Shown here: positions 10,866 through 59,427 of the stretch, piece by piece
Numbering within the stretch: position 1 is the stretch's first letter
Layout: each line of letters opens with the position of its first letter
DNA from: an uncultured Victivallales bacterium
GTDB lineage: Bacteria > Verrucomicrobiota > Lentisphaeria > Victivallales > UBA1829
Length of the DNA: 64,000 nt
NCBI GenBank assembly: GCA_944391115.1
Contig: CALXSJ010000003.1
Location: 167,574-231,573 of the forward strand
Direction: 5' to 3'
Position numbers and translations under genes: made by a program
Notes under the pieces: generated by a model
What the model saw: the letters and a program-made list of their open reading frames with translations, nothing else
Told to the model about the DNA's origin: nothing
Database searches by the model: none

Positions 10866-11660
10866 TTACGGCAATATGCAATAATAAAAACGTCCCCACT
10901 GCCGATATCCGGCCGCATTCGTAAAAGGCCGCAGTGCATATCCGTTTGCCATAGTTGAATTCAATGTGGCCACATGTCCGTCAACCATCAATACATTGGC
11001 TTTCCGGTTATGAATCAAGGATAGTCCGCGTGTAACGGAGCTTGTTCGATAATCAAGCAGTCCAGTATATCCGTCGCTGCTCAAAATCTCAAAATAAAAA
11101 TCAGGACGCTGTTGACTGGTCAGCCAGTTGTCTCCAGTCCAGCCCCAATCGGAAGGCGTGTGAAGCCGGGAAAGAATATATCCGTGATAACTGGAACCTC
11201 CATTCCAGGTAATTGGAGAGAGCTGTGCCAGTCTTCCGCACAGGCCATATGTCTGCAAATATGTTGCCGTGTCGGAAAATTGATTTGACGGACAAAAAAA
11301 TACGTTCTGCTTCCTGGCGGTCAAATCCTTTTTGGTCAAATCCTTTTTTCTGTAAAGGAGAGAAAGAATCCTCCCCCATGGCTGAGCTTCGGAATATTCC
11401 TGTGTCATTTGGGAGGGCGTAATGGAATGATTCTTAAAATCGTCTGCATAATTCTGCAGCATAAGGAAACACTGACGCTGATTGGAAACACAATTTATGG
11501 CATATCCGCGTTTCCTGACGTTACTCAATGCAGGCAACAGCATGCCAGCCAGAATTGCAATGATCGCAATTACGATGAGAAGCTCTATCAAGGTAAATAT
11601 TTTCAATTTCAGTCCTGTATCCTCCCTGCAGCGTCCTTTTTCTTTGAAAAACAATCGCAT
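10866..11660 (-). CDS. prepilin-type N-terminal helix / H-X9-DG family pseudopilin-like protein
   Basis: N-terminal [24 protein letters not shown] and C-terminal [12 protein letters not shown] (exact H-X9-DG). AGGAGG sits 2 nt upstream of the ATG. Confidence 0.85.
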
Positions 11661-11688: not shown

Positions 11689-11716
11689 ATTATAATGAAA
11701 AAAACAATTTTGTCAA
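11689..11716 (-). promoter_or_regulatory. consensus sigma70 promoter for the pseudopilin/GH42-like operon
   Basis: On the minus strand, TTGACA (11716-11711), 16 nt, TATAAT (11694-11689). The palindrome TCAATTGA (11713-11720) overlaps the -35. Confidence 0.6.
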
Positions 11717-11727
11717 TTGAACAAAGG

Positions 11728-11756
11728 TTGCAAAACTTGTCTTTATGATGTATTCT
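11728..11756 (+). promoter_or_regulatory. candidate promoter driving leader copy A / AraC gene
   Basis: TTGCAA (11728-11733), 17 nt, TATTCT (11751-11756). The conserved leader begins a few nt downstream. Confidence 0.4.
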
Positions 11757-11761
11757 ATCGA

Positions 11762-11930
11762 ATAAATGAAAGAATGAACAGCCGCGATGCCGCGCATACA
11801 GGGGAATCGGGAAAATTCCCCCTGCGGCGGCCAGTCTTTTTCCGCAGGACCGCGGCAGGACTGGAGTTCCCGCATGAAAGGCGGTTTATGATGCCAAGGC
11901 GCTGCGGTTTCAAAACCGTTTTTTTCTTTT
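11762..11930 (+). ncRNA. candidate structured 5' leader / sRNA, copy A (paralog of 28222-28370)
   Basis: About 82% identity to copy B over the first ~73 aligned nt. Hairpin GGGGAAT/ATTCCCC (11801-11821). Helix CCAGTCTT/AGGACTGG (11831-38/11857-64) enclosing CCGC/GCGG. Ends with a small hairpin plus T7 (11919-11925). Confidence 0.45.
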
Positions 11931-11956
11931 GAATCAACGTCTCTTGGAGAAAAAAT

Positions 11957-12772
11957 ATGTATTTCGCACGCTACCGTTCCATTCCGGCGGATAAGATTCC
12001 GCCGATGCCGCTTGCGCTGAAAGGTGTCGGAAGATATCTGGCATACGCGGGATGGGAGGAAAAGAATGACGGAATTTACCGTCCGCACTGCGGAATGTTC
12101 TGGTGCAGAAGCGGAAAAGCGGCATTCGTAATTGGAACCCGGAATTGTACGCTCGAAGCGGAACAGGCAGTTTATTATTATCCTTTTGAAGCACATAAGA
12201 TTCATGTCATCAGCAGTTCCTTCGATTACTACTGGATGATATTCGACGGAATTGACGCTGCCGGTGTTCTCGGCATGTTCCAATATCCGAGGGAACCGTT
12301 TCACGCAGGTCCGCCGCCCGAAGAAATTTTCCGCCAGGCGTATGAAAGTTTAGAGGGGCTGAGTGATGCTGCTCGTTATCTCAGCGGAGCTCTTGTCTAC
12401 CGGATTCTGTCTCTTGCTGGCTCTCCGGCAGAGGCTCAAAAAGAGAAATCAAAAGAAGCGCATCTTGTTACCCGCTTCAGGCAGATTGTCGCTGAAGAAG
12501 CGGGAAACAGGGAACTGAATCTTATCAAAATTGCGGAACGGCTTCAATGTCATCGGACGACACTGACGCGGCTCGTCAAAAAGGAACTCGGAATCGTTCC
12601 CGCACAGTATCTGAATCATGTACGTCTTCAGAATGCCCTGGAACTGCTGGACAACAGCAATCTGACCGCCGCGGAAATCGGTGAAATCTGCGGATTCGCC
12701 ACACCGGAATATTTTTCCAGAAAGTTCAAGCAGCTCACGGGGGAACCTCCACGGCGTTTCAGGAACCACTGA
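11957..12772 (+). CDS. AraC-family transcriptional regulator
   Basis: 271 aa. C-terminal double HTH (IAERLQCHRTTLTRLVKKELG...; AAEIGEICGFATPEYFSRKFKQLTGEPPRRFR) with an N-terminal cupin-like sensor. Confidence 0.85.
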   Translation: MYFARYRSIPADKIPPMPLALKGVGRYLAYAGWEEKNDGIYRPHCGMFWCRSGKAAFVIGTRNCTLEAEQAVYYYPFEAHKIHVISSSFDYYWMIFDGIDAAGVLGMFQYPREPFHAGPPPEEIFRQAYESLEGLSDAARYLSGALVYRILSLAGSPAEAQKEKSKEAHLVTRFRQIVAEEAGNRELNLIKIAERLQCHRTTLTRLVKKELGIVPAQYLNHVRLQNALELLDNSNLTAAEIGEICGFATPEYFSRKFKQLTGEPPRRFRNH

Positions 12773-13048
12773 ATTCAGAAAGAAAATACGGTTTTCCGGA
12801 ATTGTGAGATTGAAAAATTGCCTGTTCGGACAACCGTGTCATGCAGGGCGGATTCCTAGGGCGGATGTGAACGGGAAATTTTCCTCTGTGCGGAGAGGAC
12901 TGGAAGACCGTGGAAGCGGAGGACGGCGCAAAGCGGACCGGGAATTTTCCGTCATGCTTGCAGCTTCGTCCGGTTCATGTTATATTGCGGCATAGACCGA
13001 TGGAAAACTTTTGCTTCCCATATAGGGATGAAAAAAGGAGAAGGGGCG

Positions 13049-17889: not shown

Positions 17890-19221
17890 ATGTTCAGCGA
17901 AGAGGCGAAGAGACTTTCCAGGGAAATTCTCGCGGAGAATTCCGAGATCGATTTCCGGATCCGGACCGGAACGGAGATGTACCGGAAAGGATTCGGGCAT
18001 TTCCTGCTTACGGACGCGGCGGGAAAGGAACTGCCCGGCGCGACGGTCCGCCTGAAACAGAAAACGCATGAATACAAATTCGGCTGCAACGCCTTCATGA
18101 TCGATTCCTTCCCGGAAAAGGAGCAGAACGAACGCTACGAGGAGGTGTTCGCCTCCCTGTTCAACCTTGCCGTCGTTCCGTTCTACTGGAGCGATCTGGA
18201 ACCGGAGCCGGGAAAAGAGCGTTTCGCCAGGGACAGTTCCTTCTGCTACCGCCGTCCCGCGCCCGACCGGGTTCTGGAATTCTGTGAAAAACACGGCATC
18301 ACCCCGAAGGGACATCCGCTCTGCTGGCATCTTTTCTGGCCGGAATGGATTCCGAACAACACCGTCGACAACATGCGTTTCCTGCGGAACCGCATCGAGC
18401 GGATCGCCGCGCGCTATAAAGACCGGATTCCGATCTGGGACGTGGTCAACGAGGCGCAGTCGCGCCATCCCGCCTGCCGCACGGACATTCCCGTGTTTCC
18501 GGATGATTACGTGGAGCGCGTCTTCCGTATGGCGGAGCGCTTCCTGCCGGACTGCCGGAAAATTTACAATGACGACAGTACCTGGTGGAACTGGCAGGGC
18601 GACTACTCTCCCTCCTACCGCCTGATCCGTCGCCTTCAGGAGCGCGGCTGCAGCGTGGACGGAATCGGAGTTCAGTATCATATGTTTGAAAACATGCTCG
18701 GAGACCGCTGCTGCGGCGTCAACCGCCCGCTGACCCCGCGATGCATCCTGAAGTGTCTGGACCAGTACCGGAAACTGGATATTCCGGTCAATTTCTCCGA
18801 GGTCAGCATCATCAGCCGGCGCGATCTCGGCGACGGCGACACCTTTCAGGAGCTGGTCGCGGAAAAGCTCTACCGCCTCTGGTTCAGCCATCCCGCGACC
18901 GAGGCCATCATCTGGTGGAACCTTGTCGACGGAACCGGCGCCTACGCGCCGCTCGGAAGCGAGAAAGGGGAAAACGCTCTTCGAGCGGGTCTGGTCAACT
19001 ACGACTTCACCCCCAAAGCGGCTTTCCTGGCTCTCGAACGCCTCATCCGGAAGGAGTGGCATACGGAATGCGTGCTGGAATACCGGGCGGGCGGGGATAA
19101 CCGCTTCCACGGCTTCTACGGGCAGTACGAGGCGGAAATTGAAACGGAGAGCGGAAAAGTCACCCTGCCTGTTTCGCTCAGCAAGTTCTCCGAAAACGAA
19201 TTCAGGATTGCAGTCAAATAA
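17890..19221 (+). CDS. GH10-family glycoside hydrolase (xylanase-like), cytoplasmic, paralog 1
   Basis: WDVVNEA (acid/base Glu) and VNFSEVSI (nucleophile Glu position). YWSDLEPEPGKERF. No signal peptide. Confidence 0.8.
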   Translation: MFSEEAKRLSREILAENSEIDFRIRTGTEMYRKGFGHFLLTDAAGKELPGATVRLKQKTHEYKFGCNAFMIDSFPEKEQNERYEEVFASLFNLAVVPFYWSDLEPEPGKERFARDSSFCYRRPAPDRVLEFCEKHGITPKGHPLCWHLFWPEWIPNNTVDNMRFLRNRIERIAARYKDRIPIWDVVNEAQSRHPACRTDIPVFPDDYVERVFRMAERFLPDCRKIYNDDSTWWNWQGDYSPSYRLIRRLQERGCSVDGIGVQYHMFENMLGDRCCGVNRPLTPRCILKCLDQYRKLDIPVNFSEVSIISRRDLGDGDTFQELVAEKLYRLWFSHPATEAIIWWNLVDGTGAYAPLGSEKGENALRAGLVNYDFTPKAAFLALERLIRKEWHTECVLEYRAGGDNRFHGFYGQYEAEIETESGKVTLPVSLSKFSENEFRIAVK

Positions 19222-20580: not shown

Positions 20581-21912
20581 ATGAGCAGTCGAAGCGAAGT
20601 GCTGAAGCCCTTTGAACGCAAAAAGGCGTTCATGGAGGACCGGATCGAACACGGGATCGAACTGTACCGGAAGGGATTTGCCTTCCTGCATTTCCGGGAT
20701 GCCATGGAGCGTCCCGTCCGCGGCGTGCGTGTGCACATCCGCCAGAAATCGCATGACTTCCGGTACGGCGCGAATCTTTTCATGCTCGGGGAATTCGATT
20801 CCTCCGAACAGAACGCGGCATACGAAAGTCTGTTCGCGGATGCGTTCAACATCGCGACCCTTCCGTTCTACTGGAGCGATCTTGAGCCCGAGCCGGGGAA
20901 GCCGCGCTTTGCCAAAGACAGCCCGAAACGCTACCGGCGGCCCGCTCCCGATCTCTGCCTCGAATACTGCGAGGCCAGGGGAATCGAACCCAAGGCGCAC
21001 TGTCTGAACTACGCCGCCTTCCATCCGGAATGGGCAAAAGGGGATGTGATGACGGAGAAGCGGCTCCTCGACAAGCGTTTCCGCGAACTTGCCGCGCGTT
21101 ATTCCGAACGCATTCCGAGCTGGGAGGTCACGAACGAAACTTTCTGGGGGATGCGGATTCCCCGCTATTCCGAACTGTACCGGCAGGACGATCTGATCGA
21201 ATGGAGTTTTGCGGAGGCCGAACGCCATTTCCCCATGAACCGCTTGATTATCAACGAGGCGCACTGCCGCATCTGGGGGCCGGATTATTTTTACGGGACG
21301 CGCAGTCCCTATTACATGCAGATCGAACGCGCGCTCCGCTCCGGCAGACGCATCGACAGCATCGGCATGCAGTTCCACATGTTCTACCGCGCGGAGGAGG
21401 AGATCGCGCAAACCGCCGTCTACTATGATCCGGAACGGATTTACGACGTGCTTGACACGTACGCGAAACTCGGGAGGAGGATCCAGCTGACGGAACTGAC
21501 GATTCCCGCCTACACGCGCGAAGCGGAGGATGAGGCGCTTCAGGCCGAAATTCTCCGGAATCTCTACAGCATGTGGTTCAGCCATCCCGCCATGGAGGGG
21601 ATCATTTACTGGAACCTCGTGGACGGATTCGCCGCATGCGCGGCGCAGGGGGATATGACGGCGGGGGAAAATTACTATCACGGCGGTCTTGTCCGTCATG
21701 ACTTTACGCCGAAGGAGGCATACCGCGTGATCCGGGATCTTTTCTCAAAGACCTGGCACACGGAACTGACGCTTGAAACCGATACGGACGAACTCGATTT
21801 CAAGGGGTTTTACGGCGTTTACGAGCTGGAAATTGAAGCGGGCGGGAAAACTGTCCGGCGGGAAATCCATCTGAACAGGGACAGCAACAGCTGTTTCCAT
21901 ATTGTGATCTGA
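20581..21912 (+). CDS. GH10-family glycoside hydrolase, cytoplasmic, paralog 2
   Basis: WEVTNET and IQLTELTI catalytic blocks. YWSDLEPEPGKPRF is nearly identical to paralog 1. No signal peptide. Confidence 0.8.
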   Translation: MSSRSEVLKPFERKKAFMEDRIEHGIELYRKGFAFLHFRDAMERPVRGVRVHIRQKSHDFRYGANLFMLGEFDSSEQNAAYESLFADAFNIATLPFYWSDLEPEPGKPRFAKDSPKRYRRPAPDLCLEYCEARGIEPKAHCLNYAAFHPEWAKGDVMTEKRLLDKRFRELAARYSERIPSWEVTNETFWGMRIPRYSELYRQDDLIEWSFAEAERHFPMNRLIINEAHCRIWGPDYFYGTRSPYYMQIERALRSGRRIDSIGMQFHMFYRAEEEIAQTAVYYDPERIYDVLDTYAKLGRRIQLTELTIPAYTREAEDEALQAEILRNLYSMWFSHPAMEGIIYWNLVDGFAACAAQGDMTAGENYYHGGLVRHDFTPKEAYRVIRDLFSKTWHTELTLETDTDELDFKGFYGVYELEIEAGGKTVRREIHLNRDSNSCFHIVI

Positions 21913-22111: not shown

Positions 22112-23602
22112 ATGACCACCTATCAGGAACCGCAGGTTTCCGGGGAAGAGATTGATGCGGCATTTTCAGATGCCTACAGAAAGCTCTGGAACGAGGACGA
22201 ACAGCGCAGGATTGACGCGGACATCGAAAAGAACCGCAAGGCGGACGGAGAATTTCAGCTGCCCGCTTCCGCCGCGGGGCGCGAAGTCCGGGCCGAACAG
22301 CTTTCCCACGACTTCATCTTCGGCGCGCACATCTTCAACTTCGATCAGCTCGGCAGCGACGAGCGCAACGCCCGCTACCGGGAACTCTACGGGACGCTCT
22401 TCAATTCCGCGACGATCGCATTCTACTGGAAGACGCTCGAGCCTGAAGAAGGGCATCCCCGTTTCCAGGCCGGATACCGCGATACCGCGGAGTTCTGGAA
22501 TCATTGCCCGGAACCGAACAGTCAGCCGCACTGGCGGCGTCCGGCTGTCGATCCCGTCGTGGAATTCTGCCGTTCGAAAGGAATCCGCCTGCACGGACAC
22601 ACGCTTGTCTGGGGAAACAACACCTGGCAGATTCCGGACTGGCTCATCAACCGGATTCCGTTCGACTATCTGAAAAAGGCGAACCTGGAACGCAATCCGG
22701 TGAATCACACGCTTCCGGGCAATGCGACCGCTCATGCGTTTGAAGAAATGAGCGTCCGGGAAATGGAGGAGGCTCTTCCGGAATATGCGACGCTCATCAA
22801 TACGCTCATGGCAAAACGCATCATTGAAATTGCGATGCGTTACGGCGACAAGGTGGACAGCTGGGACGTTGTCAATGAGAGCTCTGTGGATTTCGGACCG
22901 GGCCTGATGGTTCCCGGTTCGAAGCTCTGCAAAAGCGCTTACGGCCCGATGCCGGGGGACTACGCATACCGGGGATTCAAGTTCGCCGAAGGCGTGCTTC
23001 CTCCGCAGGCGAAACTCAATATCAACGATTACAATCTCTGCGATGCCTACGCGGACCAGGTGAACGATCTGCGGGCGCGCGGCTGCCGGATCGACATCAT
23101 GGGCGCGCAGATGCATCTCTTCAATCCGCAGACCTGCCTGGACATCGCCGAGGGCAGGAGTCTCGTTCAGTCTCCGGACAAAGTGCGCGAGTCCATGAAA
23201 TGCATCGGCCGCGCCGGACTGCCGATTCATCTTTCCGAAATCACGATCACTTCGCCCGGCAGCGGCCGGCACGGACAGATTGTGCAGGCGGGAATCGCCC
23301 GCAATCTCTACCGTCTCTGGTTCAGCCTTGAACCGATGATGGGAATCACATGGTGGAATGTCGTGGACGGCTGCGGCGCCCCGGGCGAACCGGCGGCCTC
23401 CGGGCTTTTCACGCGGGAGATGGAACCGAAACTTTCATACTTCGCACTGGAAAAACTGATTCTTCACGAATGGCGCACCCGTCTGGTCCTCACTGCGGAC
23501 GCGGAGTCGCACGTGGCCTTCCGCGGGTTCCGCGGCCGTTACCGGCTCGCCTGGACCGGAGCGGACGGCCGTGAAGAGTCCATGATTTGTCACTTGAAAT
23601 AA
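22112..23602 (+). CDS. GH10-family glycoside hydrolase, cytoplasmic, paralog 3
   Basis: WDVVNES and IHLSEITI. ATG at 22112 has AGGAG 8 nt upstream, whereas the ORF track begins at the GTG at 22103. No signal peptide. Confidence 0.8.
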   Translation: MTTYQEPQVSGEEIDAAFSDAYRKLWNEDEQRRIDADIEKNRKADGEFQLPASAAGREVRAEQLSHDFIFGAHIFNFDQLGSDERNARYRELYGTLFNSATIAFYWKTLEPEEGHPRFQAGYRDTAEFWNHCPEPNSQPHWRRPAVDPVVEFCRSKGIRLHGHTLVWGNNTWQIPDWLINRIPFDYLKKANLERNPVNHTLPGNATAHAFEEMSVREMEEALPEYATLINTLMAKRIIEIAMRYGDKVDSWDVVNESSVDFGPGLMVPGSKLCKSAYGPMPGDYAYRGFKFAEGVLPPQAKLNINDYNLCDAYADQVNDLRARGCRIDIMGAQMHLFNPQTCLDIAEGRSLVQSPDKVRESMKCIGRAGLPIHLSEITITSPGSGRHGQIVQAGIARNLYRLWFSLEPMMGITWWNVVDGCGAPGEPAASGLFTREMEPKLSYFALEKLILHEWRTRLVLTADAESHVAFRGFRGRYRLAWTGADGREESMICHLK

Positions 23603-26599: not shown

Positions 26600-27850
26600 T
26601 CACATATTGCTGACCACGGCGTTTGCGAATCCGGAGCAGGAAAGTTCCGTCGCGCCTTCCATCAGACGTGCGAAATCGTAAGTCACCTGTCCGGAGGAGA
26701 TTGCCTTTTCAATGCCTTTGATGACCAGGTCGGCCGCCTCGTTCCAGCCGATGTGGCGCAGAAGCATTTCGCCGGAAAGCGCGAGAGAGGACGGATTCAC
26801 TTTGTCCATTCCCGCATATTTGGGCGCCGTCCCGTGCGTCGCTTCGAAGACCGCCATGCCGGTTGTGTAGTTGATGTTCGCTCCGGGGGCGATGCCGATG
26901 CCGCCCACGCATGCGGCAAGGGCGTCGGAGACGTAATCCCCGTTGAGATTCATCGTGGCGATCACGTCATATTCCGCGGGACGCGTCAGGATCTGCTGAA
27001 GGAAGGCGTCGCAGATGCAGTCCTTGATGAGGATTTTGCCTTCCGGCGCCTTCCAGTCGCATTCGGAGGCGATTGCGACGCGGTCGGCGAATTCGCGTCT
27101 GGCCAGCTCGTAGCCCCAGTCCTTGAAGCCGCCCTCGGTGAATTTCATGATGTTGCCCTTGTGGACCAGCGTCACGCTTTTCCGGTTGTTGTCCAGCGCA
27201 TAGCGGATGGCGGCGCGGATGAGCCGTTCGCTTCCTTCCCGGGAGACCGGCTTGACGCCGATCGCGCTGGTTTCGGGGAAACGGATTTTCTTCACGCCCA
27301 TTTCATTCCGGAGGAAGCTGATGACCTTTTGGGCCTCGGGGGAGCCGGCCTGCCATTCGATTCCGGCGTAGATGTCCTCGGTATTCTCCCGGAACACGAC
27401 CATGTCGGTCAGTTCCGGATTTTTCACAGGGGAGGGGACTCCGGCGAAGTGGCGCACGGGGCGCAGGCAGACGTAGAGATCCAGCGTCTGGCGGAGCGCC
27501 ACATTCAGCGAGCGGATGCCTTTCCCGACCGGGGTGGTCAGCGGTCCCTTGATGGAAATCCGGCAGTCGCGGATCGCTTCGACCGTTTCATCGGGAAGCC
27601 AGGTGCCTTCTCCGTAAATCCGGTTCGCCTTCTCGCCTGCGAAGACCTCCATCCATGCGATTTTCCGTTTGGAGCCGTAGGCTTTTTCCACTGCGGAATT
27701 CCAGATGTGCATGCTGGCGCGCGTGATGTCCGGACCGATGCCGTCGCCTTCAATGTAGGTGATGACCGGATGATCGGGCACATCCAGAACGCCTTCGGAT
27801 TTCAGCGTGATTTTTTCGCCTGCGGGAACTTTTATCTTGTCATAGGCCAT
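26600..27850 (-). CDS. icd: NADP-dependent isocitrate dehydrogenase
   Basis: 416 aa. ...[15 protein letters not shown]..., [13 protein letters not shown], and full-length IDH/IPMDH-family similarity. Confidence 0.95.
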
Positions 27851-27929: not shown

Positions 27930-28190
27930 AACACGGAATTGCGATTCCCGCGAGAAAGCGCGTTTTTTTTGGTGACAGAGCAGGGAAAAGGACAGCCTTC
28001 CGGACGATGCCGTCCTGCTGGAAGGGCATTTGCCGCGCACTTTTTTCATGCCGCACGGCAGAAAGCGCGGAGATCCGGAGGACGCTTCCAGACTCTTTTC
28101 CCGGTTGCACGGAATCCCGCCGGATGCGTTTTCCCGGGGCCGGGAAGATCCATCCGGCGGAAAGTTTTTTAAAATAATTTTTTTGCTTTC

Positions 28191-28218
28191 TTGTAAAAAA
28201 CTATATTTGTAGTACAAT
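28191..28218 (+). promoter_or_regulatory. candidate promoter driving leader copy B / GntR gene
   Basis: TTGTAA (28191-28196), 16 nt, TACAAT (28213-28218). Confidence 0.5.
28207..28217. promoter_or_regulatory. candidate FadR/GntR-type operator overlapping the -10
   Basis: Perfect palindrome TTGTA-G-TACAA. It fits the GntR-family GT-Nx-AC operator pattern and overlaps the TACAAT -10 box. Confidence 0.4.
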
Positions 28219-28221
28219 ACC

Positions 28222-28370
28222 ATAAATGAACAGCCCCGGTGCGGAGCATGCGGGGAATCGGGGATTCCGCCTGCGGCAGCCGTCTTGTTCCGCTGGAACG
28301 AAGCGGCACAAGACGGAGAGCATGAAGCGTTTTGCGATGCGACGCATCGCGGTCCTGTCCCCGTTTTTTT
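28222..28370 (+). ncRNA. candidate structured 5' leader / sRNA, copy B (paralog of 11762-11930)
   Basis: Hairpin GGAATC/GATTCC (28254-28268). 9-bp helix CCGTCTTGT/ACAAGACGG (28280-88/28308-16) enclosing CCGCT/AGCGG. Hairpin GCGATGC/GCATCGC (28334-28350). T7 at 28364-28370. Confidence 0.45.
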
Positions 28371-28418
28371 ATGAACTCTTTTGGGAAACACCTCTGCGGA
28401 GAGGGAAAGGAGCCTGGC

Positions 28419-29117
28419 ATGAAAATCAATCCGGTCAGACGGAAAAGCGCTCTGGATTGCGCCATTGACGCGATCCGTTCGTATATCCTTGACAACCGTC
28501 TGCAGCCCGGAGATGTCCTTCCTCCTGAAACGGAACTCGCCCGCGAACTGGAAATCAGCCGCAATATTCTCCGCGAGGCGATGCGCCATTACCGCACGCT
28601 CGGGATCATTGATTCGAAGCCGAAGCTCGGCGCCGTGATCGTTCGCCTTGTCCCGGAGAATCCTTATGCGGGCTATCAGCCTTTTCTTGCCGCGGGAGAG
28701 AATTCCCTGCGCGAACTTTTTGAAATGCGGAGCAGTCTGGAAACCGGAGCCGCTCCGTTTCTGGTACGGGCCGTGACGCCGGAGACGCTCGCTTCGCTCG
28801 GGGAAATTGTGGACGAGATGAGACGGGAAAAACGCGAAGAGCATTTCACTGCGCTCGACATGCGTTTTCATACGGAACTGCTGCATGCGATGCGCAACCG
28901 GATTCTCGACGGGCTTCTACCGTTCGTGATCGGTTTTTTCTACGAACTCAGGAAAGAGAAGATCGCCCGCGGATGGAAACGGAAACCCCGCAGGGAGATT
29001 CTGGAGGAACACCGTGCCATCCTCGCCGCCCTGGAACGGCGTGACGCCGCCGGGCTGGCCGCGGAGATCGCCCGGCATAACGAAGTCTATTTCAACATTC
29101 TGAAGATCGGCGGATGA
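28419..29117 (+). CDS. GntR-family (FadR-subfamily) transcriptional regulator
   Basis: LPPETELARELEISRNILREAMRHYRTLGII wHTH plus an all-helical FCD-like C-terminus. ATG at 28419 is preceded by AAGGAG; the ORF track starts earlier at 28332. Confidence 0.85.
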   Translation: MKINPVRRKSALDCAIDAIRSYILDNRLQPGDVLPPETELARELEISRNILREAMRHYRTLGIIDSKPKLGAVIVRLVPENPYAGYQPFLAAGENSLRELFEMRSSLETGAAPFLVRAVTPETLASLGEIVDEMRREKREEHFTALDMRFHTELLHAMRNRILDGLLPFVIGFFYELRKEKIARGWKRKPRREILEEHRAILAALERRDAAGLAAEIARHNEVYFNILKIGG

Positions 29118-36309: not shown

Positions 36310-38748
36310 CTATTTTTCCTGCTGTGCGGAGGGCGGGGCCGGATCGTAGATTTTCCGCATGGAGACGTCGTCGATGTAAAGGCGCGAGTCGGCGGACTGG
36401 AGCGGCGGGCGGACGGCGAAGACGACGCGTTTCGCATCCTGCGGCATGGTGAAGCAGAATTCCAGCAGGACCCATTTCCCGACGGCTTCCGCCGGAACCG
36501 CCGCGCTGGCGAGCCAGGAACCGTTCGTCCAGTCCTTCCGGATGGAGACCGAGCCGAGATCGCCGTGCGCCGTTGCATCGTTCCGCTTCACGCGGCATGT
36601 GACACGGTAGCGTCCGCCTTTCGCGGGCACGATTCCCCATGTGTATGCCAGCATGTCATTCAGATTCTTCCCGAATGCCAGAGCACGTTCTCCGGAGAAC
36701 TTTTCCGTGCTGCTCCAGAAGACGTCCGTCTCCATTTTGCTGGAGCGCCATACGCCCCAGCCTCTGATCCCGGAAGGATCGCTCTGCTCCTGTCCCGGTT
36801 CCGGTTCAAAGCCGCCGTTTACGATATATTCCCGGTTTTCCGGATCGGTGTAGTTCTGGGTCAGGAAGAGCGCTTTCAGTTCGGGATCGGCGCTCTTTTC
36901 CGCCTGCGTCTTCCAGAATTGCCTTGTCTGATCCGGATCAGTGGCATGTTTCCGTTTCAGATAGGCTGTCGCGCGGGAGAGGGCCGGATCCGCCGTGCGT
37001 TCCAGAATCGGACGGGGAAGAAGATTGTACTGCGAGCGGAATTTCTCCAGACTCATGCGCTTTTTGTAGAAAATCTCATCTTCAATGCCCGGGCTGAACC
37101 GGAAATTCCGGATGTGCTCCAGTCCGGCATATCCCCGGCGCAGTTTCCGCAGCAGGTTTTCCAGGTCCACATCGCTCCCGATCTTCTGATCCGCGATCTC
37201 GCGGGAGGTCAGGTAAAGATCCAGATAGGAGCGGAAGAGCGAGTAGAACTCTTTCAGGCGCAGGAACCGTCGTTTGAAGGGTTCCGCCTGCGCCGTCCGT
37301 TCTGCGGAGGCAAGCTGTGCGTCCAGATACGCCAGATCGTTTCTCGTGTAGAATTTCATCTGATCGGGCGAACGCCAGTAGCGGAAGGTCGAAAAGATAT
37401 CGGGATCGCGTTCCGCGACTTCCTCGATGCGGCGGAAGAAGCGGGAAACCGCCGCGGAACTTTTCCCGTACATGGAGTCGAAATAGTCTTTCAGGAGAGC
37501 GTCCGCGTCGGCGTTCAGATTCCACGCCCCTTCGTCCAGAACATACTGGCGCGCGCCTTCGATTACGGTTTCACAGGGGAAATATTCGTTGAAAAGGACG
37601 CTCAATCCGAATTCCCGGTGCAGTTTTCTCCAGCGCTCCAGCTGCTTGTGCGGGAAGTAGCGGGGAATGAGGAAACCGCTTCCTGCGGTGTAGAGATAGT
37701 CGTAAACGCCGAAATGCCGGATGCCGGTTTTCTTCCACTCCCGCATCAGGGACTCGTTGATGCCGATGGTTTCGACCAGGATGTTCGGTTCCATCCGGAT
37801 GTTTTTCGGAACCGCCGAGGATCTTTTCCCGTAGGCGATGAAGGAAAGATATTTGCCCGGATGCCGTTTCGCGAGCGCCTTTGCCGCCTTGTTGTAGAAG
37901 CCCGCATACTGATTGCCGTATTTTTCATATTCTCCGTTGCAGAAGGAACAGAGACAGTCTCCGGCGGAATCATTCACGCCGAGGGGCAGTGAGATCATCC
38001 GCGGATTCCTTTTGAAATAACGGTCCGCGTATTCCATGGTGAGCTTGAGCAGTTCCGGATTGGCGAGACAGGGCTGCCAGCCTGCGCGCGAACGGGGAGG
38101 CGGAACCCTCCGCTTCCCGTCGATCAGCGGATAGAATTCCGGATGCGTTTTTCCGTAGACCTCCGGCGGGATGACCTCCCAGAAGGCATGGGTTCCCTTG
38201 CTTCTCATGCGGTCCGCCCGGGAGAAATAAGGATTCGGCGTGCCTCCCGCCAGATAGGATGCGATGTCCGGTTTTTCAAAGATGCGGACGGTTGCCGGCA
38301 GTTTGATCGATTCCAGTTCCGGGACGACCTCCTCCGACGGCATTCCCCCGAACTGCCGGTAAGGCGTGAAGCGTTTCAGAAAGTCGTAAAGGCCGTACCG
38401 GATGTTGCCGCCGATGTTCAGGGTTTTCCCGTCTTCGCAGAGCAGAAAGTAAACAGCATCCTTGTCCGTCCGGTTCATTTCCGCGGATTCCCGCGGAGAG
38501 AGAAAACGGATCACGTAATTGTCGAGCTTCGGATCAATTTTCCGGTAAATGGGCAGTTTTTTGCCTGCGGCGCGTCCCAGAATCTCGGAGAGAAGGCTGC
38601 GGCAGGTGATGTCGCCTTGCGGATCCAGCGCAAGATTCATTCGTTTTCCGTTGATTTCAATCAGTCCGTTTCCCGCTTCGGGCGGCAGTTTTCCCGCACA
38701 GACGGTCAAGGCCGGAATCAGAGCAAGAAAAGAGAGGCGGATTTTCAT
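36310..38748 (-). CDS. secreted DUF4838-like protein with C-terminal CBM4/9-like domain (paralog a)
   Basis: Signal peptide MKIRLSFLALIPALTVCAG. Shared paralog motif CLCSFCNGEY...FIAYG. C-terminal NGGFE...W...YIDDVSM, typical of CBM4_9. Confidence 0.6.
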   Translation of the reverse strand: MKIRLSFLALIPALTVCAGKLPPEAGNGLIEINGKRMNLALDPQGDITCRSLLSEILGRAAGKKLPIYRKIDPKLDNYVIRFLSPRESAEMNRTDKDAVYFLLCEDGKTLNIGGNIRYGLYDFLKRFTPYRQFGGMPSEEVVPELESIKLPATVRIFEKPDIASYLAGGTPNPYFSRADRMRSKGTHAFWEVIPPEVYGKTHPEFYPLIDGKRRVPPPRSRAGWQPCLANPELLKLTMEYADRYFKRNPRMISLPLGVNDSAGDCLCSFCNGEYEKYGNQYAGFYNKAAKALAKRHPGKYLSFIAYGKRSSAVPKNIRMEPNILVETIGINESLMREWKKTGIRHFGVYDYLYTAGSGFLIPRYFPHKQLERWRKLHREFGLSVLFNEYFPCETVIEGARQYVLDEGAWNLNADADALLKDYFDSMYGKSSAAVSRFFRRIEEVAERDPDIFSTFRYWRSPDQMKFYTRNDLAYLDAQLASAERTAQAEPFKRRFLRLKEFYSLFRSYLDLYLTSREIADQKIGSDVDLENLLRKLRRGYAGLEHIRNFRFSPGIEDEIFYKKRMSLEKFRSQYNLLPRPILERTADPALSRATAYLKRKHATDPDQTRQFWKTQAEKSADPELKALFLTQNYTDPENREYIVNGGFEPEPGQEQSDPSGIRGWGVWRSSKMETDVFWSSTEKFSGERALAFGKNLNDMLAYTWGIVPAKGGRYRVTCRVKRNDATAHGDLGSVSIRKDWTNGSWLASAAVPAEAVGKWVLLEFCFTMPQDAKRVVFAVRPPLQSADSRLYIDDVSMRKIYDPAPPSAQQEK

Positions 38749-45659: not shown

Positions 45660-46327
45660 GAGGACGGGAAAACGGAAGATTTACATTGATAGAGCTTTTA
45701 ATTGTCATTGCAATCATTGCAATTCTGGCAGCCCTGCTGCTGCCGGCCTTGAACAAGGCGAGAATGGTTTCTCTCCGGATAGACTGCATGTCCAGGGAAC
45801 GTCAGCTGGGAGTGGCGTTCCAGCTTTACGCGGACAACTTCGGCGGATATCTGCCAGCCTACCTCAATTATTCCGACAGCAAAACTGTTCTGGGATATCG
45901 CTGGATCGACGTGCTTGTGAAAAACATGCCGGACATCATAAAAAACGGCAGCGACCGCAGATATGTCTGCAAATCAATCCCGGAACTGCGGGAGATCTTC
46001 AGCGCCTGGGCGATCAACTGCACGGTCACGGGAAGTGTTTCCGCCGCCGGGCCGATGTCTCCGGAAGCCGTTCCCCTGCATCGCCTGAAGTCCGCTTCCC
46101 GGACCTGCATCATCACGGATGGCCGGAAAGGGTATGAAGGCCTGAACTATCCTGACCGCTTCCGCCCCGGCTATGAGTATCGCTCGGTGGAATACCGTCA
46201 TGAAAAGGGGGCTGATTTTCTTTTTGCGGACGGGCATACCGCTTATGCCATTCCCAATTACGCCACCGGTTTTTCCGCGGATTTTATCGCCGGCATCGAC
46301 AAGAACGACGGAAAATTGTATGAATAA
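45593..46327 (+). CDS. prepilin-type N-terminal helix / H-X9-DG family pseudopilin-like protein
   Basis: [24 protein letters not shown] and H-EKGADFLFA-DG (exact H-X9-DG). An alternative start at 45647 has an identical RBS context. Confidence 0.85.
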   Translation: MRNCNHRICNAVEAEGDSMRNCRGRENGRFTLIELLIVIAIIAILAALLLPALNKARMVSLRIDCMSRERQLGVAFQLYADNFGGYLPAYLNYSDSKTVLGYRWIDVLVKNMPDIIKNGSDRRYVCKSIPELREIFSAWAINCTVTGSVSAAGPMSPEAVPLHRLKSASRTCIITDGRKGYEGLNYPDRFRPGYEYRSVEYRHEKGADFLFADGHTAYAIPNYATGFSADFIAGIDKNDGKLYE

Positions 46328-46362: not shown

Positions 46363-49233
46363 ATGAAATCACCCGTGATTCTGCTTGCCGCGGGAGCGCT
46401 TGTTTTCGGTGCTCATGCGGGAGACCTGCTCTTCGGCAACGGAAAAACCGCCTGGAAAATTGTCATTCCCGCCAAAGCCGCCGCTCCGGAACAGTATGCC
46501 GCGGAGGAGCTGAAAAACACACTGAGGAAGATTTCCGGCGCAGATTTCATCATTCGGAAAGATGACTCTCCCGCCGGGAAAAGAAACATCGTCATCGGTT
46601 CTCCTTCCACCTCTCCGGCGGTCCGGAAACTGGAGAAGCCGCTTCAGCTCCGCAGGGACGATGCCGATATGCTTTCCGTGCGGACCCTGAACGGCAACCT
46701 CTATCTGACCGGCAGCCATCCGCGCGGCGCACTTTACGCCGTTTACTCTTTCCTGACCGGACCGCTGGAGGTCCGCTGGTTCTGGCCGGGCGACGGCGGC
46801 GAATTCATTCCCGCACGGAAAAGTTTTGAACTGCCGGATTTGAACTTCACCTATCGTCCGCCGTTCCGCTACCGGGTGATGGAGCTGACCTACACCCATC
46901 TGCATCTTCCCACGGAAGCCTGGCTGGCGCGGAACTTCATGAACATGGGTTCCCGCACCCGCAAGTTCCGCGATCAGGCCGGATTTGTGGCGAACACTCC
47001 CGCCGGGCACGCGGTCTGCATTCCCGGCGGCGACATCCGGAAGCGTTTTGCCGAGCATCCGGAGCAGTTTGCCCTGGTTGACGGGAAACGCAGCATTTAC
47101 GGTTTCTCCGGCTGCTGGTCGAATCCGGATTTCACGAAGGAGGTGCTGGAAAGACTGGACGAGGCCGTCTTCCTGTCCAGGGGGAAAATGCTTTGCACTT
47201 ATCCCGCGGATACGCCGCACCGGTGCTCGTGTGAAAAATGCACGGCGATCCATCCGGATCCGTCATCCCGCTGGTTTGTGTATTATGAGAAGCTGATGAA
47301 AGAGCTGCGCAGGCAGTATCCGGATCTCAAGTTTGCAAGCATTGCCTATCAGGAATATCAGAAGGTGCCGCAGACGCCGGTCCGCGGGCTGGAATATGTG
47401 GCCTACTGCCAGTATGACCGCTGCTTCATTCACGGACTGCATGATCCGGATTGCAAATCCAACCGCGACAGCGTCGCCACGCTGAAACGCTGGCAGGAAA
47501 AAACTCCGATGGGGATTTACGGGTATGAGTTCTGCGCGCTGAACAAGCCCATGTACATGCCGATCTGGAATGTCATCGCCGATGAGATGAAGGTGTACCG
47601 CGATATGAAAATGGTCTATATGAAAACCGAAATGCCGACTCAGTATCCGAAAAATGCGCGCCGCGCGGAGCTGAAACCTCAGATTTACCGTCTCGCCTAC
47701 TACATGTACGTCCGGCTGATGTGGAATCCTGATGCGGATGTCAATGCTCTGCTCCGCGACTGGTGCGACAAGGTCTACGGTCCGGCAGGAAAGGCCCTGT
47801 TCGCCTATCACAGACGCATGGCGGAGGCGTGGGACAACTGCCCCGGTCATACCGGTTACCTGGGCAATTCCGTTGGAACCCTCGCGAAAAACATGCTGAA
47901 TCCCGAAGTGATCCAGTTCTGCCGCGACCGGTTCAACGCCGCGGACAAGGCCGTGCGGAACCTGGCGGACGCCCGTCTCCGGAAACGCTGTCAGGAGGAG
48001 GTCGATCTGGAAAAGGAGCTGTTCCGCAACTGGGTGAAGGAGTATCATCTTTCCCTCGATGGCGCGCTGAGCGTCAATCTGCCCCGCCATCCGGCGGGAA
48101 CGGATTTCGCTTCTCTTCCGGAACTTCATGTGACCGGCCGTGCCGGGGATCAGCCTCTGCCGACGGAGATGCGCATGTACTGGTCGGAACAGGGGCTGCA
48201 CATTCAGATGATCGCAGGAGACTCCGCGATGAAAAACCTCCGCAAAGGTTCCCGCAGGCGTGACGCCTCCGGGAAGGACGCCGACAGAATCGAGGTTGCG
48301 ATCGACCTGAATGACAATTCCCCGTCCCGCCGCTTCTGCGTGAACGCCGCCGGCGGCATCTGCGACGCCCTCGGCGCGGATCCCGCCTGGAATCCCGACT
48401 GGAAAAGTTCCGTCAAACTGGAAAAGGACCGCTGGATTGCCGAAATGACGATTCCGTTCCGTGCGCTGGGCGCGAGTGCGCCGGAAGAGGGGCGGTATTG
48501 GAAGATCAGCATTGTGCGGCACGGAAGGAACGCCGTCTGCGGATTTCCGTCTCCTGTCGACCGGAATCTTTCGCAGGGAGCGAATGTCTTCTTCTCGAAA
48601 AAAAGTTCATGGGATGACAAGCTGGTCTGGATTTCTATTTCGAATCACAGATTTACCATTGTGAAGGGAGCTCTCCAGAAAGACGGCTGGCTCGCGAAAG
48701 GCTATCCGGGACCGGAGGGTGTCATGAACATTGACACGTCCGATGCCAGGATGTTCTTCATCGAGACCTTCCGGAATGACATGCCCCGGGAATTCTATGA
48801 ACAGAAGCTGATTCCCGCGGTGAAGAACGGCGCGGTCGCGGTTTTCAACTGCTATTACGGAGTGGAAAAGCTGCATGTCAATTTCAATGATCCGACCTAC
48901 AAGATGGTCTTCCGGCCGGATATTCCCAAAATCCGGCGTCCGAGCTGGGTGACCGGGAGCTCCTTCGCGACCACGCCCAACAAAATCAGCCTCTCCAGAT
49001 GGCAGACGCCTCCGGGCAATCTGATTCCGGCGCATCCGGAAAGCTGGGAAATTCTGGCGAAACAGCTTAACAGCAAAGGGGATAAGGATTATCCCATCAT
49101 GATGGCGCGTCCGCTGGGAAAGGGGATGATTCTGCTGGTCGGGACTCTCAGACCCTACCAGATTCCCCTCATTCTGGCGAATGCCCGGGAATACAACAAG
49201 GTCATTTCCCGCAAAAGCGCCGGAACGGAATAA
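46363..49233 (+). CDS. secreted DUF4838-like protein + CBM9-like + C-terminal GH42M/GATase1-like domain (paralog b)
   Basis: Signal peptide MKSPVILLAAGALVFGAHA. Paralog motif CSCEKCTAIH...SIAYQ. CBM9-like block (WIAEMTIPFRALG). The C-terminal ~200 aa are homologous to the next ORF. Confidence 0.6.
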   Translation: MKSPVILLAAGALVFGAHAGDLLFGNGKTAWKIVIPAKAAAPEQYAAEELKNTLRKISGADFIIRKDDSPAGKRNIVIGSPSTSPAVRKLEKPLQLRRDDADMLSVRTLNGNLYLTGSHPRGALYAVYSFLTGPLEVRWFWPGDGGEFIPARKSFELPDLNFTYRPPFRYRVMELTYTHLHLPTEAWLARNFMNMGSRTRKFRDQAGFVANTPAGHAVCIPGGDIRKRFAEHPEQFALVDGKRSIYGFSGCWSNPDFTKEVLERLDEAVFLSRGKMLCTYPADTPHRCSCEKCTAIHPDPSSRWFVYYEKLMKELRRQYPDLKFASIAYQEYQKVPQTPVRGLEYVAYCQYDRCFIHGLHDPDCKSNRDSVATLKRWQEKTPMGIYGYEFCALNKPMYMPIWNVIADEMKVYRDMKMVYMKTEMPTQYPKNARRAELKPQIYRLAYYMYVRLMWNPDADVNALLRDWCDKVYGPAGKALFAYHRRMAEAWDNCPGHTGYLGNSVGTLAKNMLNPEVIQFCRDRFNAADKAVRNLADARLRKRCQEEVDLEKELFRNWVKEYHLSLDGALSVNLPRHPAGTDFASLPELHVTGRAGDQPLPTEMRMYWSEQGLHIQMIAGDSAMKNLRKGSRRRDASGKDADRIEVAIDLNDNSPSRRFCVNAAGGICDALGADPAWNPDWKSSVKLEKDRWIAEMTIPFRALGASAPEEGRYWKISIVRHGRNAVCGFPSPVDRNLSQGANVFFSKKSSWDDKLVWISISNHRFTIVKGALQKDGWLAKGYPGPEGVMNIDTSDARMFFIETFRNDMPREFYEQKLIPAVKNGAVAVFNCYYGVEKLHVNFNDPTYKMVFRPDIPKIRRPSWVTGSSFATTPNKISLSRWQTPPGNLIPAHPESWEILAKQLNSKGDKDYPIMMARPLGKGMILLVGTLRPYQIPLILANAREYNKVISRKSAGTE

Positions 49234-58602: not shown

Positions 58603-59427
58603 ATGTCATATTCCGATGAGAAAAATGAAGCGGAGAAGATGCGGAAAAACAAACTTTCCGTCCGAAGCTCCTTATTGCCCTTCCGTCCCCCGCGGTACGT
58701 GGAAAACGTATTTTTCACCTTGATCGAGCTCCTCATCGTGATTGCGATCATCGCCATCCTGGCGTCGCTCCTCCTGCCCGCGCTGAATGTGGCAAGGGCA
58801 AAGGCGAAAGCCGTCGCCTGCACCGGCAAATTGAAGCAGCTCGGATTCGGCATCAACTGCTACACTTCCGATTACCGGGAATATTTCCCTCCCGGAAAAA
58901 TGGGATTGAATCAGTGGATGATTCTGCTTTATCCCTATGTGAAAAATGACTGCGGCGACGGCATCCGCGGCTATCGGAATTTTTCTCAGAACACAATCTG
59001 GCACTGTCCTTCGACGGCAAACCCCGAAATAGAACAGCCGGCCAGAATCAGCTATGGATATAACGTTATGCTGTTCGGCGGAAACGACTATGAGCCAAAC
59101 CCCTGGCAGACCGCTGTGACGCCCCCGATCAAGGCGGCGCAGATCAAACATCCCTCCCGGCAGCTGATTGTCTGCGACACCTGGCTGACCAATACGTCGC
59201 TGAATGGACGGAGCGGCGGATATTATATTCTGGAGGCCGCCTCCAATTTTGCACTGCGCCATTCCCGGAGGTGCAATGTCGCCTATTTCGGCGGAAATGT
59301 GAATCCGGAGGATGTCTACCGGACCATCTGGACGCATCCCTGCTATTATCCTGTCAACTGTCATCTGAACGACAGGGAAATGTATTACAGCAACGGCATC
59401 GCCAAACCGGAGTTTTCCCCTTATTAA
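58603..59427 (+). CDS. prepilin-type N-terminal helix / H-X9-DG family pseudopilin-like protein (variant H-X9-GG, long leader)
   Basis: [24 protein letters not shown] preceded by a 46-aa leader. [15 protein letters not shown] at 58603 follows AAGGAG, 4 nt after the GH3 stop. Confidence 0.8.

Follow-up and report, generated by a model that had tools for sequence, protein, structure and literature searches.

The window, by which we mean the whole 64-kb stretch of DNA that was analysed, has a GC content of 56% and carries genes of Lentisphaerae type, prepilin-type N-termini among them; the source names of homologues of its GntR-family gene are Lentisphaerae or Lentisphaeria. Two similar segments, copy A and copy B, lie within it, both sense-oriented between a promoter and a regulator gene. 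Copy A is set in a 296-nt divergent intergenic region that separates a prepilin-like gene from an AraC-family gene, and copy B in a 568-nt divergent region between an isocitrate/isopropylmalate-dehydrogenase-type gene and a GntR/FCD gene, the first gene of an operon that also encodes an HpcH/HpaI aldolase and an esterase. The original prediction had named the two downstream genes as AraC and FadR-type GntR regulators, and their Pfam domains agree. The features of the two loci are as follows.

10866-11660, minus strand: prepilin-like gene, on the other side of the copy A intergenic region
11728-11756, plus strand: native AraC promoter, -35 TTGCAA (11728-11733), 17-nt spacer, -10 TATTCT (11751-11756), outside the repeat
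11772-11779, plus strand: left flanking direct repeat of copy A, GAATGAAC, putative target site
11780-11930, plus strand: copy A of the repeat, 151 nt (blastn and nhmmer homology to copy B, folds, inverted repeats, terminator scan)
11931-11938, plus strand: right flanking direct repeat of copy A, GAATCAAC, identical to the left repeat at 7 of 8 positions
11957-12772, plus strand: AraC-family regulator gene, downstream of copy A (Pfam HTH_18, 3.5e-21; HTH_AraC; AraC_binding)
26600-27850, minus strand: isocitrate/isopropylmalate-dehydrogenase-type gene, on the other side of the copy B intergenic region
28191-28218, plus strand: native GntR promoter, TTGTAA, 16-nt spacer, TACAAT (promoter scan), outside the repeat
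28226-28231, plus strand: left flanking direct repeat of copy B, ATGAAC
28232-28370, plus strand: copy B of the repeat, 139 nt (homology to copy A, folds)
28371-28376, plus strand: right flanking direct repeat of copy B, ATGAAC
28419-29117, plus strand: GntR/FCD (FadR-type) regulator gene, downstream of copy B (Pfam GntR, 2.8e-12; FCD, 1.1e-20)

Within the window, blastn aligns copy A with copy B at 81.8% identity over 77 nt (E = 3e-12), in line with the claim of two homologous leader copies that share about 82% identity in their 5' part, and returns no significant match to the copies beyond this pair. In a global alignment of 11780-11930 with 28232-28370, 111 of 161 columns are identical (~69%), with 76% identity over the leading 90 columns and 61% thereafter; the similarity of the 3' halves also lies above that of shuffles (p = 0.003). 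The common 5' end that had been placed behind each promoter was found as well, in the form of ATAAATGAA at 11762-11770 on the A side and 28222-28230 on the B side, and, as had been argued, no reading frame common to A and B survives the indels that separate them. Beyond the U-run, towards the ribosome-binding site, the similarity between the copies is marginal (p = 0.018); there it overlaps sequence native to an orthologous locus (L079, below), and was treated as chance.

The AraC promoter matches the consensus at 8 of 12 positions, under the threshold of the promoter scan. On the opposite strand, the divergent gene at 10866-11660 has a perfect sigma-70 consensus promoter (TTGACA, 16-nt spacer, TATAAT; window 11689-11716, minus strand), and the two promoters together make up a compact divergent control region that is kept, with small changes, at all AraC orthologue loci. 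At the GntR locus, TTGTAGTACAAT is kept in the orthologues with or without an insert.

AraC homologues were fetched with their contigs, and four loci were informative: L079 (89% amino acid identity), L098 (75%), L080 (64%) and L081 (60%). In all four, the promoter block TTGTCAATTG..GTTGCAAAACTT(G/A)TCTTTATGATGTAT is nearly unchanged (~93% identical to the window in L079), and in all four the ~150-nt element is missing, the promoter leading through a ~40-nt leader to the start codon. When positions 11780-11938 are removed from the window, a 41-nt leader is left (GAATAAATGAAAGAATGAAC joined to GTCTCTTGGAGAAAAAATATG), which aligns along its length with the 39-nt leader of L079. Since three successively more distant outgroups are all empty, copy A is read as a lineage-specific insertion.

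The picture at the GntR locus is more varied. Orthologues with 69% amino acid identity (L082-85) have a short empty leader of ~35 nt, TACAAT..AAAATGAAC GGATGACAATAAGGAGG, whereas a second group (L086-91, L096 and L097; 71-80%) carries a different, hairpin-rich leader of ~85 nt after the same AATGAAC, followed by AATGAAA. This alternative GntR leader (L086, 2890-2975; also in L087-L091, L096 and L097) has no similarity to A or B past AATGAAC (p = 0.81 and 0.21) and no match in Rfam. The GntR leader is clearly unconserved across orthologues, and this different insert suggests that insertions recur at the site directly behind the transcription start. With orthologues that are only 69-80% identical in protein, copy B may be either an insertion or ancestral.

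The junctions of both copies carry a common motif. The left flank of copy A, GAATGAAC, aligns with the native leader sequence AAATAAAT of L079, and its right flank, GAATCAAC, aligns with the right-hand ATGAAC of copy B; in the empty orthologous leader of L082-85, AATGAAC is present once. Judged from these alignments, the flanking repeats of A and B look like a target-site duplication, or like a junction formed site-specifically around an (A)ATGAAC core. As the same hexamer, ATGAAC, flanks both copies, it could be such a core or belong to the element ends.

The sampled strains are near-identical to one another, and in all of them both copies are fixed. Over its 151 nt, copy A differs from its counterpart in L004 by 5 substitutions and 1 indel; these 5 substitutions compare with 10 in 1545 nt of the two flanking coding sequences (p = 0.0075), a rate about 5 times higher. 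That rate is indistinguishable from the one at synonymous sites in AraC (~4 of 204), and since 4 synonymous changes amount to ~2% per synonymous site, copy A appears to evolve at close to the neutral rate. In copy B, 2 of 139 nt are substituted, a level indistinguishable from that of coding sequence and below that of the hypervariable region upstream of it. Among the strain changes that fall in the H1 helix (defined below), one turns an A-U pair of copy A into G-U and one breaks a pair in a variant of copy B.

Variation between strains is also concentrated elsewhere. Downstream of the AraC gene, window positions 12857-12932 hold 10 substitutions in ~75 nt between L004 and the window, in a region whose first ~100 nt are kept even in L079 (89%). 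The intergenic stretch upstream of copy B (27962-28020 and 28129-28181) is hypervariable among near-identical strains, with L008 differing by substitution at 23 of 340 nt, compared with at most 0.5% in the flanking genes. It contains motifs of a hairpin plus T-run, for instance around 27948-27970; an Rfam scan of this region returned nothing relevant, its sole match being at chance level (snoR9, at 23.5 bits where the gathering score is 90). Either a further insert in decay or a small RNA may lie here.

Folding of the two copies predicts the following elements, all on the transcribed strand.

11781-11786 with 11823-11828: P1 of copy A
11787-11797: small hairpin of copy A, ATGC-CGC-GCAT
11801-11807 with 11815-11821: H1 of copy A, GGGGAAT with ATTCCCC
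11831-11838 with 11857-11864: H2 of copy A, CCAGTCTT with AGGACTGG
11904-11919: weak terminator-like hairpin of copy A, 6 bp, -5.5 kcal/mol, abutting the U7
11919-11925: U7 of copy A
28239-28249: small hairpin of copy B, GTGC-GGA-GCAT
28254-28259 with 28263-28268: candidate H1 of copy B, GGAATC with GATTCC
28280-28288 with 28308-28316: H2 of copy B, CCGTCTTGT with ACAAGACGG
28334-28350: 3' hairpin of copy B, GCGATGC-GAC-GCATCGC
28364-28370: U7 of copy B

Much of the architecture that had been described for the pair can be recognized in these folds. H1, H2 and the inner hairpins (CCGC/GCGG in A, 11842-11855; CCGCT/AGCGG in B) are present in both copies, except that H1 is missing from the minimum-free-energy fold of copy B. 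The H2 of copy B (28280-28316) has 15-nt arms that are 93% complementary. The paired A/T indel reported in H2 is real in the A/B alignment and is compensated, on a sample of two independent sequences. That each copy ends in a hairpin plus U7 holds in part: the U7 is found in both, and copy A has a weak hairpin against it, but the nearest local hairpin of copy B (28334-28350) stops 13 nt short of the U-run, and the terminator scan found no terminator in copy B, for which a long-range closing stem alone is predicted.

Measured against shuffles, the folding is modest, with z-scores of -1.64 for A and -2.86 for B. The two strands give fold energies of -58.7 (plus) and -58.7 (minus) for A, and of -65.5 and -62.8 for B, and because plus and minus strands fold equally well there is no sign of RNA-specific G-U pairing. 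The RNAalifold consensus disagrees with the single-sequence folds, and the 5' domain differs between the copies; in the MAFFT alignment, the 3' strand of H2 is misaligned. A small hairpin of the form RTGC-NNN-GCAT recurs at 11787, 28239 and 28337, near the left end of both copies and near the right end of B. The end hairpins A-left and B-right are identical at 12 of 14 positions (p = 0.006), with a weaker likeness between B-left and B-right (p = 0.067), and the right-end (3') hairpin of copy A is degenerate relative to that of copy B. Terminal inverted repeats were found in neither A nor B (p = 0.84 and 0.20).

The element matches no Rfam family. Across the whole window, cmscan gave 0 Rfam matches at gathering thresholds, and permissive scans of both copies returned chance matches (E at least 0.49, far under gathering scores), in line with the earlier remark that it could be matched to no known riboswitch or leader class. 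The collection of further copies by BLASTN and nhmmer, which had been put forward as a check, yielded none: a third copy was absent from the 64-kb window (blastn; nhmmer with an A+B profile) and from ~190 kb of related loci, in which the profile retrieved orthologous strain copies alone. Weak nhmmer matches in the window at 47151-47227 and 37417-37468 lie within coding ORFs and were set aside. A pattern scan of GTDB genomes for exact ATGAACAGCC N25-45 CCTGCGGCNGCC gave 67 matches, among them 1 Lentisphaerae and 3 Verrucomicrobiota contigs, all of which were judged to be chance or coding by nhmmer and by eye. The same approach gave 2 matches in JGI metagenomes, both chance, and, in two scans of IMG/VR, 0 matches and 1 chance match. 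Plasmids and phages held no blastn match, and six-frame translations of both copies matched no protein at E of 10 or less among 5.8 billion clusters. The exact-pattern scans require 18-23 chosen bases to be exact and were run on collections without the source organism's own genome; because of this design, the absence of a third copy is weak evidence, which suggests that the element is not widespread in recognizable form. No IS200-type transposase was found in the window or the related loci by tblastn with an IS200 TnpA query, which is a weak test.

Two further sets of repeated segments in the window are coding. Three paralogous segments encode prepilin-type N-termini (N_methyl) at 11525-11616 (minus strand), 45661-45752 (plus) and 58714-58786 (plus), with 75-78% DNA identity; they lie next to glycoside-hydrolase genes, and expanded pilin-like families of this sort are typical in Lentisphaerae and the PVC group. 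An 88-nt coding segment occurs three times in neighbouring large ORFs (18865-18952, 21559-21646 and 23303-23390) at 66-77% identity, indicating a probable tandem array of paralogous genes.

We find it somewhat more probable than not that A and B are copies of a lineage-specific, small, non-autonomous interspersed repeat (MITE/SPRITE/PATE-like) inserted in the 5' UTRs of two regulators. That the element is small, non-coding and polymorphic in presence and absence between related genomes is observed directly, and the direct repeats GAATGAAC/GAATCAAC around A and ATGAAC/ATGAAC around B would correspond to the target-site duplication expected of a MITE. The MITE label itself does not fit, since terminal inverted repeats were tested for and are absent, and with two copies known a multi-copy mobile family is not demonstrated. 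On this reading, a non-coding, hairpin-rich repeat of ~140-150 nt was inserted twice in the transcribed orientation into a short native 5' UTR, at a point directly after (A)ATGAAC, and the motif now stands on both sides of each copy as a direct repeat of 6-8 bp. As a non-autonomous element, it may have been transposed in trans, or its insertion may have been site-specific or templated. A single-strand mechanism like that of IS200/IS605 or REP elements is one candidate, in view of the similar small end hairpins, the lack of inverted repeats and the specific target at the left flank. As a by-product, the leader would be lengthened from ~40 to ~190 nt, with stable hairpins and a U7 now placed between promoter and ribosome-binding site, and the probable outcome is a constitutive drop in read-through or translation, not a response to a ligand.

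An alternative hypothesis is that the pair arose by a one-off, non-mobile duplication, in which a leader (probably that of B, or one at a third locus since lost) was copied at ATGAAC through microhomology-mediated templated insertion or ectopic recombination and then drifted neutrally. This we regard as unlikely, though it accounts simply for the two copies found in all searches, for the same hexamer of microhomology at all four junctions, for the failure to find inverted repeats or a transposase, and for the resemblance of copy A to a decaying copy. It sits poorly with the divergence between A and B, which differ by 18-39%, far above strain-level divergence, so that neither copy can be fresh from the other. 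The hexamer is, moreover, duplicated around copy B too, as expected of an insertion and not of a resident source, and the different insert that L086-type genomes carry at the same AATGAAC suggests a recurrent process.

The original prediction was of a structured leader RNA. On this model, a genuine cis-regulatory leader (a terminator-type attenuator or riboswitch) would have been recruited recently by duplication and would answer to a common ligand or factor, which we consider rather improbable. The 5' UTR position and sense orientation of both copies favour it, as do the U7 at the 3' end, the compensated A/T indel in H2, the z-score of copy B (-2.86 against shuffles) with its few strain substitutions (2 in 139) and the existence of mutually exclusive pairings, such as that of CCTGCGG (11821-11827) with CCGCAGG (11842-11848) in copy A, which competes with H2 and its inner hairpin; as no known family was matched, its novelty would hold. 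The data nevertheless do not support a conserved leader: the element is missing from all four AraC orthologues and from L082-type GntR orthologues, copy A diverges almost neutrally and has a 3' hairpin degenerate with respect to that of copy B, and copy B lacks a canonical terminator while that of copy A reaches only -5.5 kcal/mol. RNAalifold and single-sequence folds conflict in the 5' domain, a strain variant breaks a pair of H1, and the folding has no strand asymmetry. The element is real, has structure and is unclassified, yet as a leader it is not conserved; the riboswitch interpretation is partly supported, and the repeat or MITE that had itself been named as the alternative lies closer to the evidence. 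A leader peptide or small protein, translated from a conserved frame initiated at ATGAAC, is very improbable. An ATG does stand 7-20 nt past each -10 box, and from it a frame runs without a stop across the element in both copies (52 codons in A, from ATG 11775 to a stop at 11932, within a listed ORF of 71 aa from TTG 11717; 80 aa in B, 28226-28468), yet the frame is displaced between the copies by indels of 1, 2 and 1 nt, similarity is gone after 3-8 residues in every frame, no Shine-Dalgarno sequence precedes the ATG, no protein matches at E of 10 or less among 5.8 billion clusters, and gene callers left it uncalled in 11 contigs.

Under the preferred reading of a small interspersed repeat, a previously undescribed element is present in an uncultured Lentisphaerae-like gut bacterium, and the AATGAAC just after the transcription start would be a hot spot that takes up different inserts in different lineages. 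Sense-oriented sites in the 5' UTRs of transcription-factor genes are those least tolerated for a selfish repeat, which hints at target specificity or at a selected function; the fixation of both copies in the sampled strains points the same way. Should further copies prefer the leaders of regulators, mobile DNA would be rewiring transcription-factor expression. A stronger version, for which we see little likelihood, makes the element a regulatory cassette that is portable, namely a structured RNA that is mobile and has its own conditional terminator, and that would act as a transposable attenuator or riboswitch in gut Lentisphaerae; if it were true, landings at ATGAAC would tie unrelated AraC and FadR-type GntR regulators to one common signal. 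The pair also makes a cautionary case, in that similar, well-folded leaders with a compensated indel can mimic a new riboswitch until orthologous loci reveal a recent insertion.

Like terminator-type riboswitches and attenuators, the element lies in a 5' UTR and offers alternative hairpins and a U-tract ahead of the ribosome-binding site; unlike them, it has no Rfam match, is unconserved at orthologous loci and, in copy B, comes without a canonical terminator. PATEs derived from IS200/IS605 and REP/BIME repeats are mobilized by Y1 (HUH) transposases. The element shares with them the absence of terminal inverted repeats, insertion directly 3' of a short specific target (..GAAC) with a related right end (GAAC/CAAC), and the same orientation of copies A and B; the small imperfect hairpins near both ends on the same strand (RTGC-NNN-GCAT) are a marginal likeness. 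It differs from them in that no TnpA or RAYT gene was found in the window or related loci with the IS200 TnpA query, that no pairing of guide and target could be demonstrated, and that only two copies are known. Terminal inverted repeats define Correia elements and other MITEs, which number tens to hundreds of copies, whereas the repeat here has no terminal inverted repeats and was seen in two copies. In other respects it is like the Correia elements, the MITEs of Neisseria, which measure ~100-160 bp, lie between promoter and gene, are co-transcribed, form stable hairpins able to alter the fate of the transcript, have short flanking direct repeats and are polymorphic in presence and absence (PMC10969869). 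SPRITE is a small bacterial repeat with a terminator-like structure and no identifiable parent IS (PMC3049150; reviewed in PMC10969869), AT-rich, present at ~30 copies per genome and enriched downstream of genes between convergent coding sequences (PMC3049150). The present repeat is set apart from SPRITE by description, being GC-rich, known in two copies, both in 5' UTRs, and bordered by a specific 6-8 bp flanking repeat; no likeness in sequence is expected. Like SPRITE, it is shorter than 200 bp and non-coding, has a U-rich tract behind a hairpin, cannot be traced to a parent IS, carries terminal inverted repeats that are at most trivial (AAAA/TTTT in SPRITE), is confined to one species group and is transcribed together with adjacent genes (PMC3049150). 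Its nearest described analogues are the SPRITE, BOX and RUP repeats of pneumococci (PMC3049150), MITEs such as Correia (PMC10969869) and the palindromic elements derived from IS200/IS605, and among such small bacterial interspersed repeats the one described here is a previously undescribed member.
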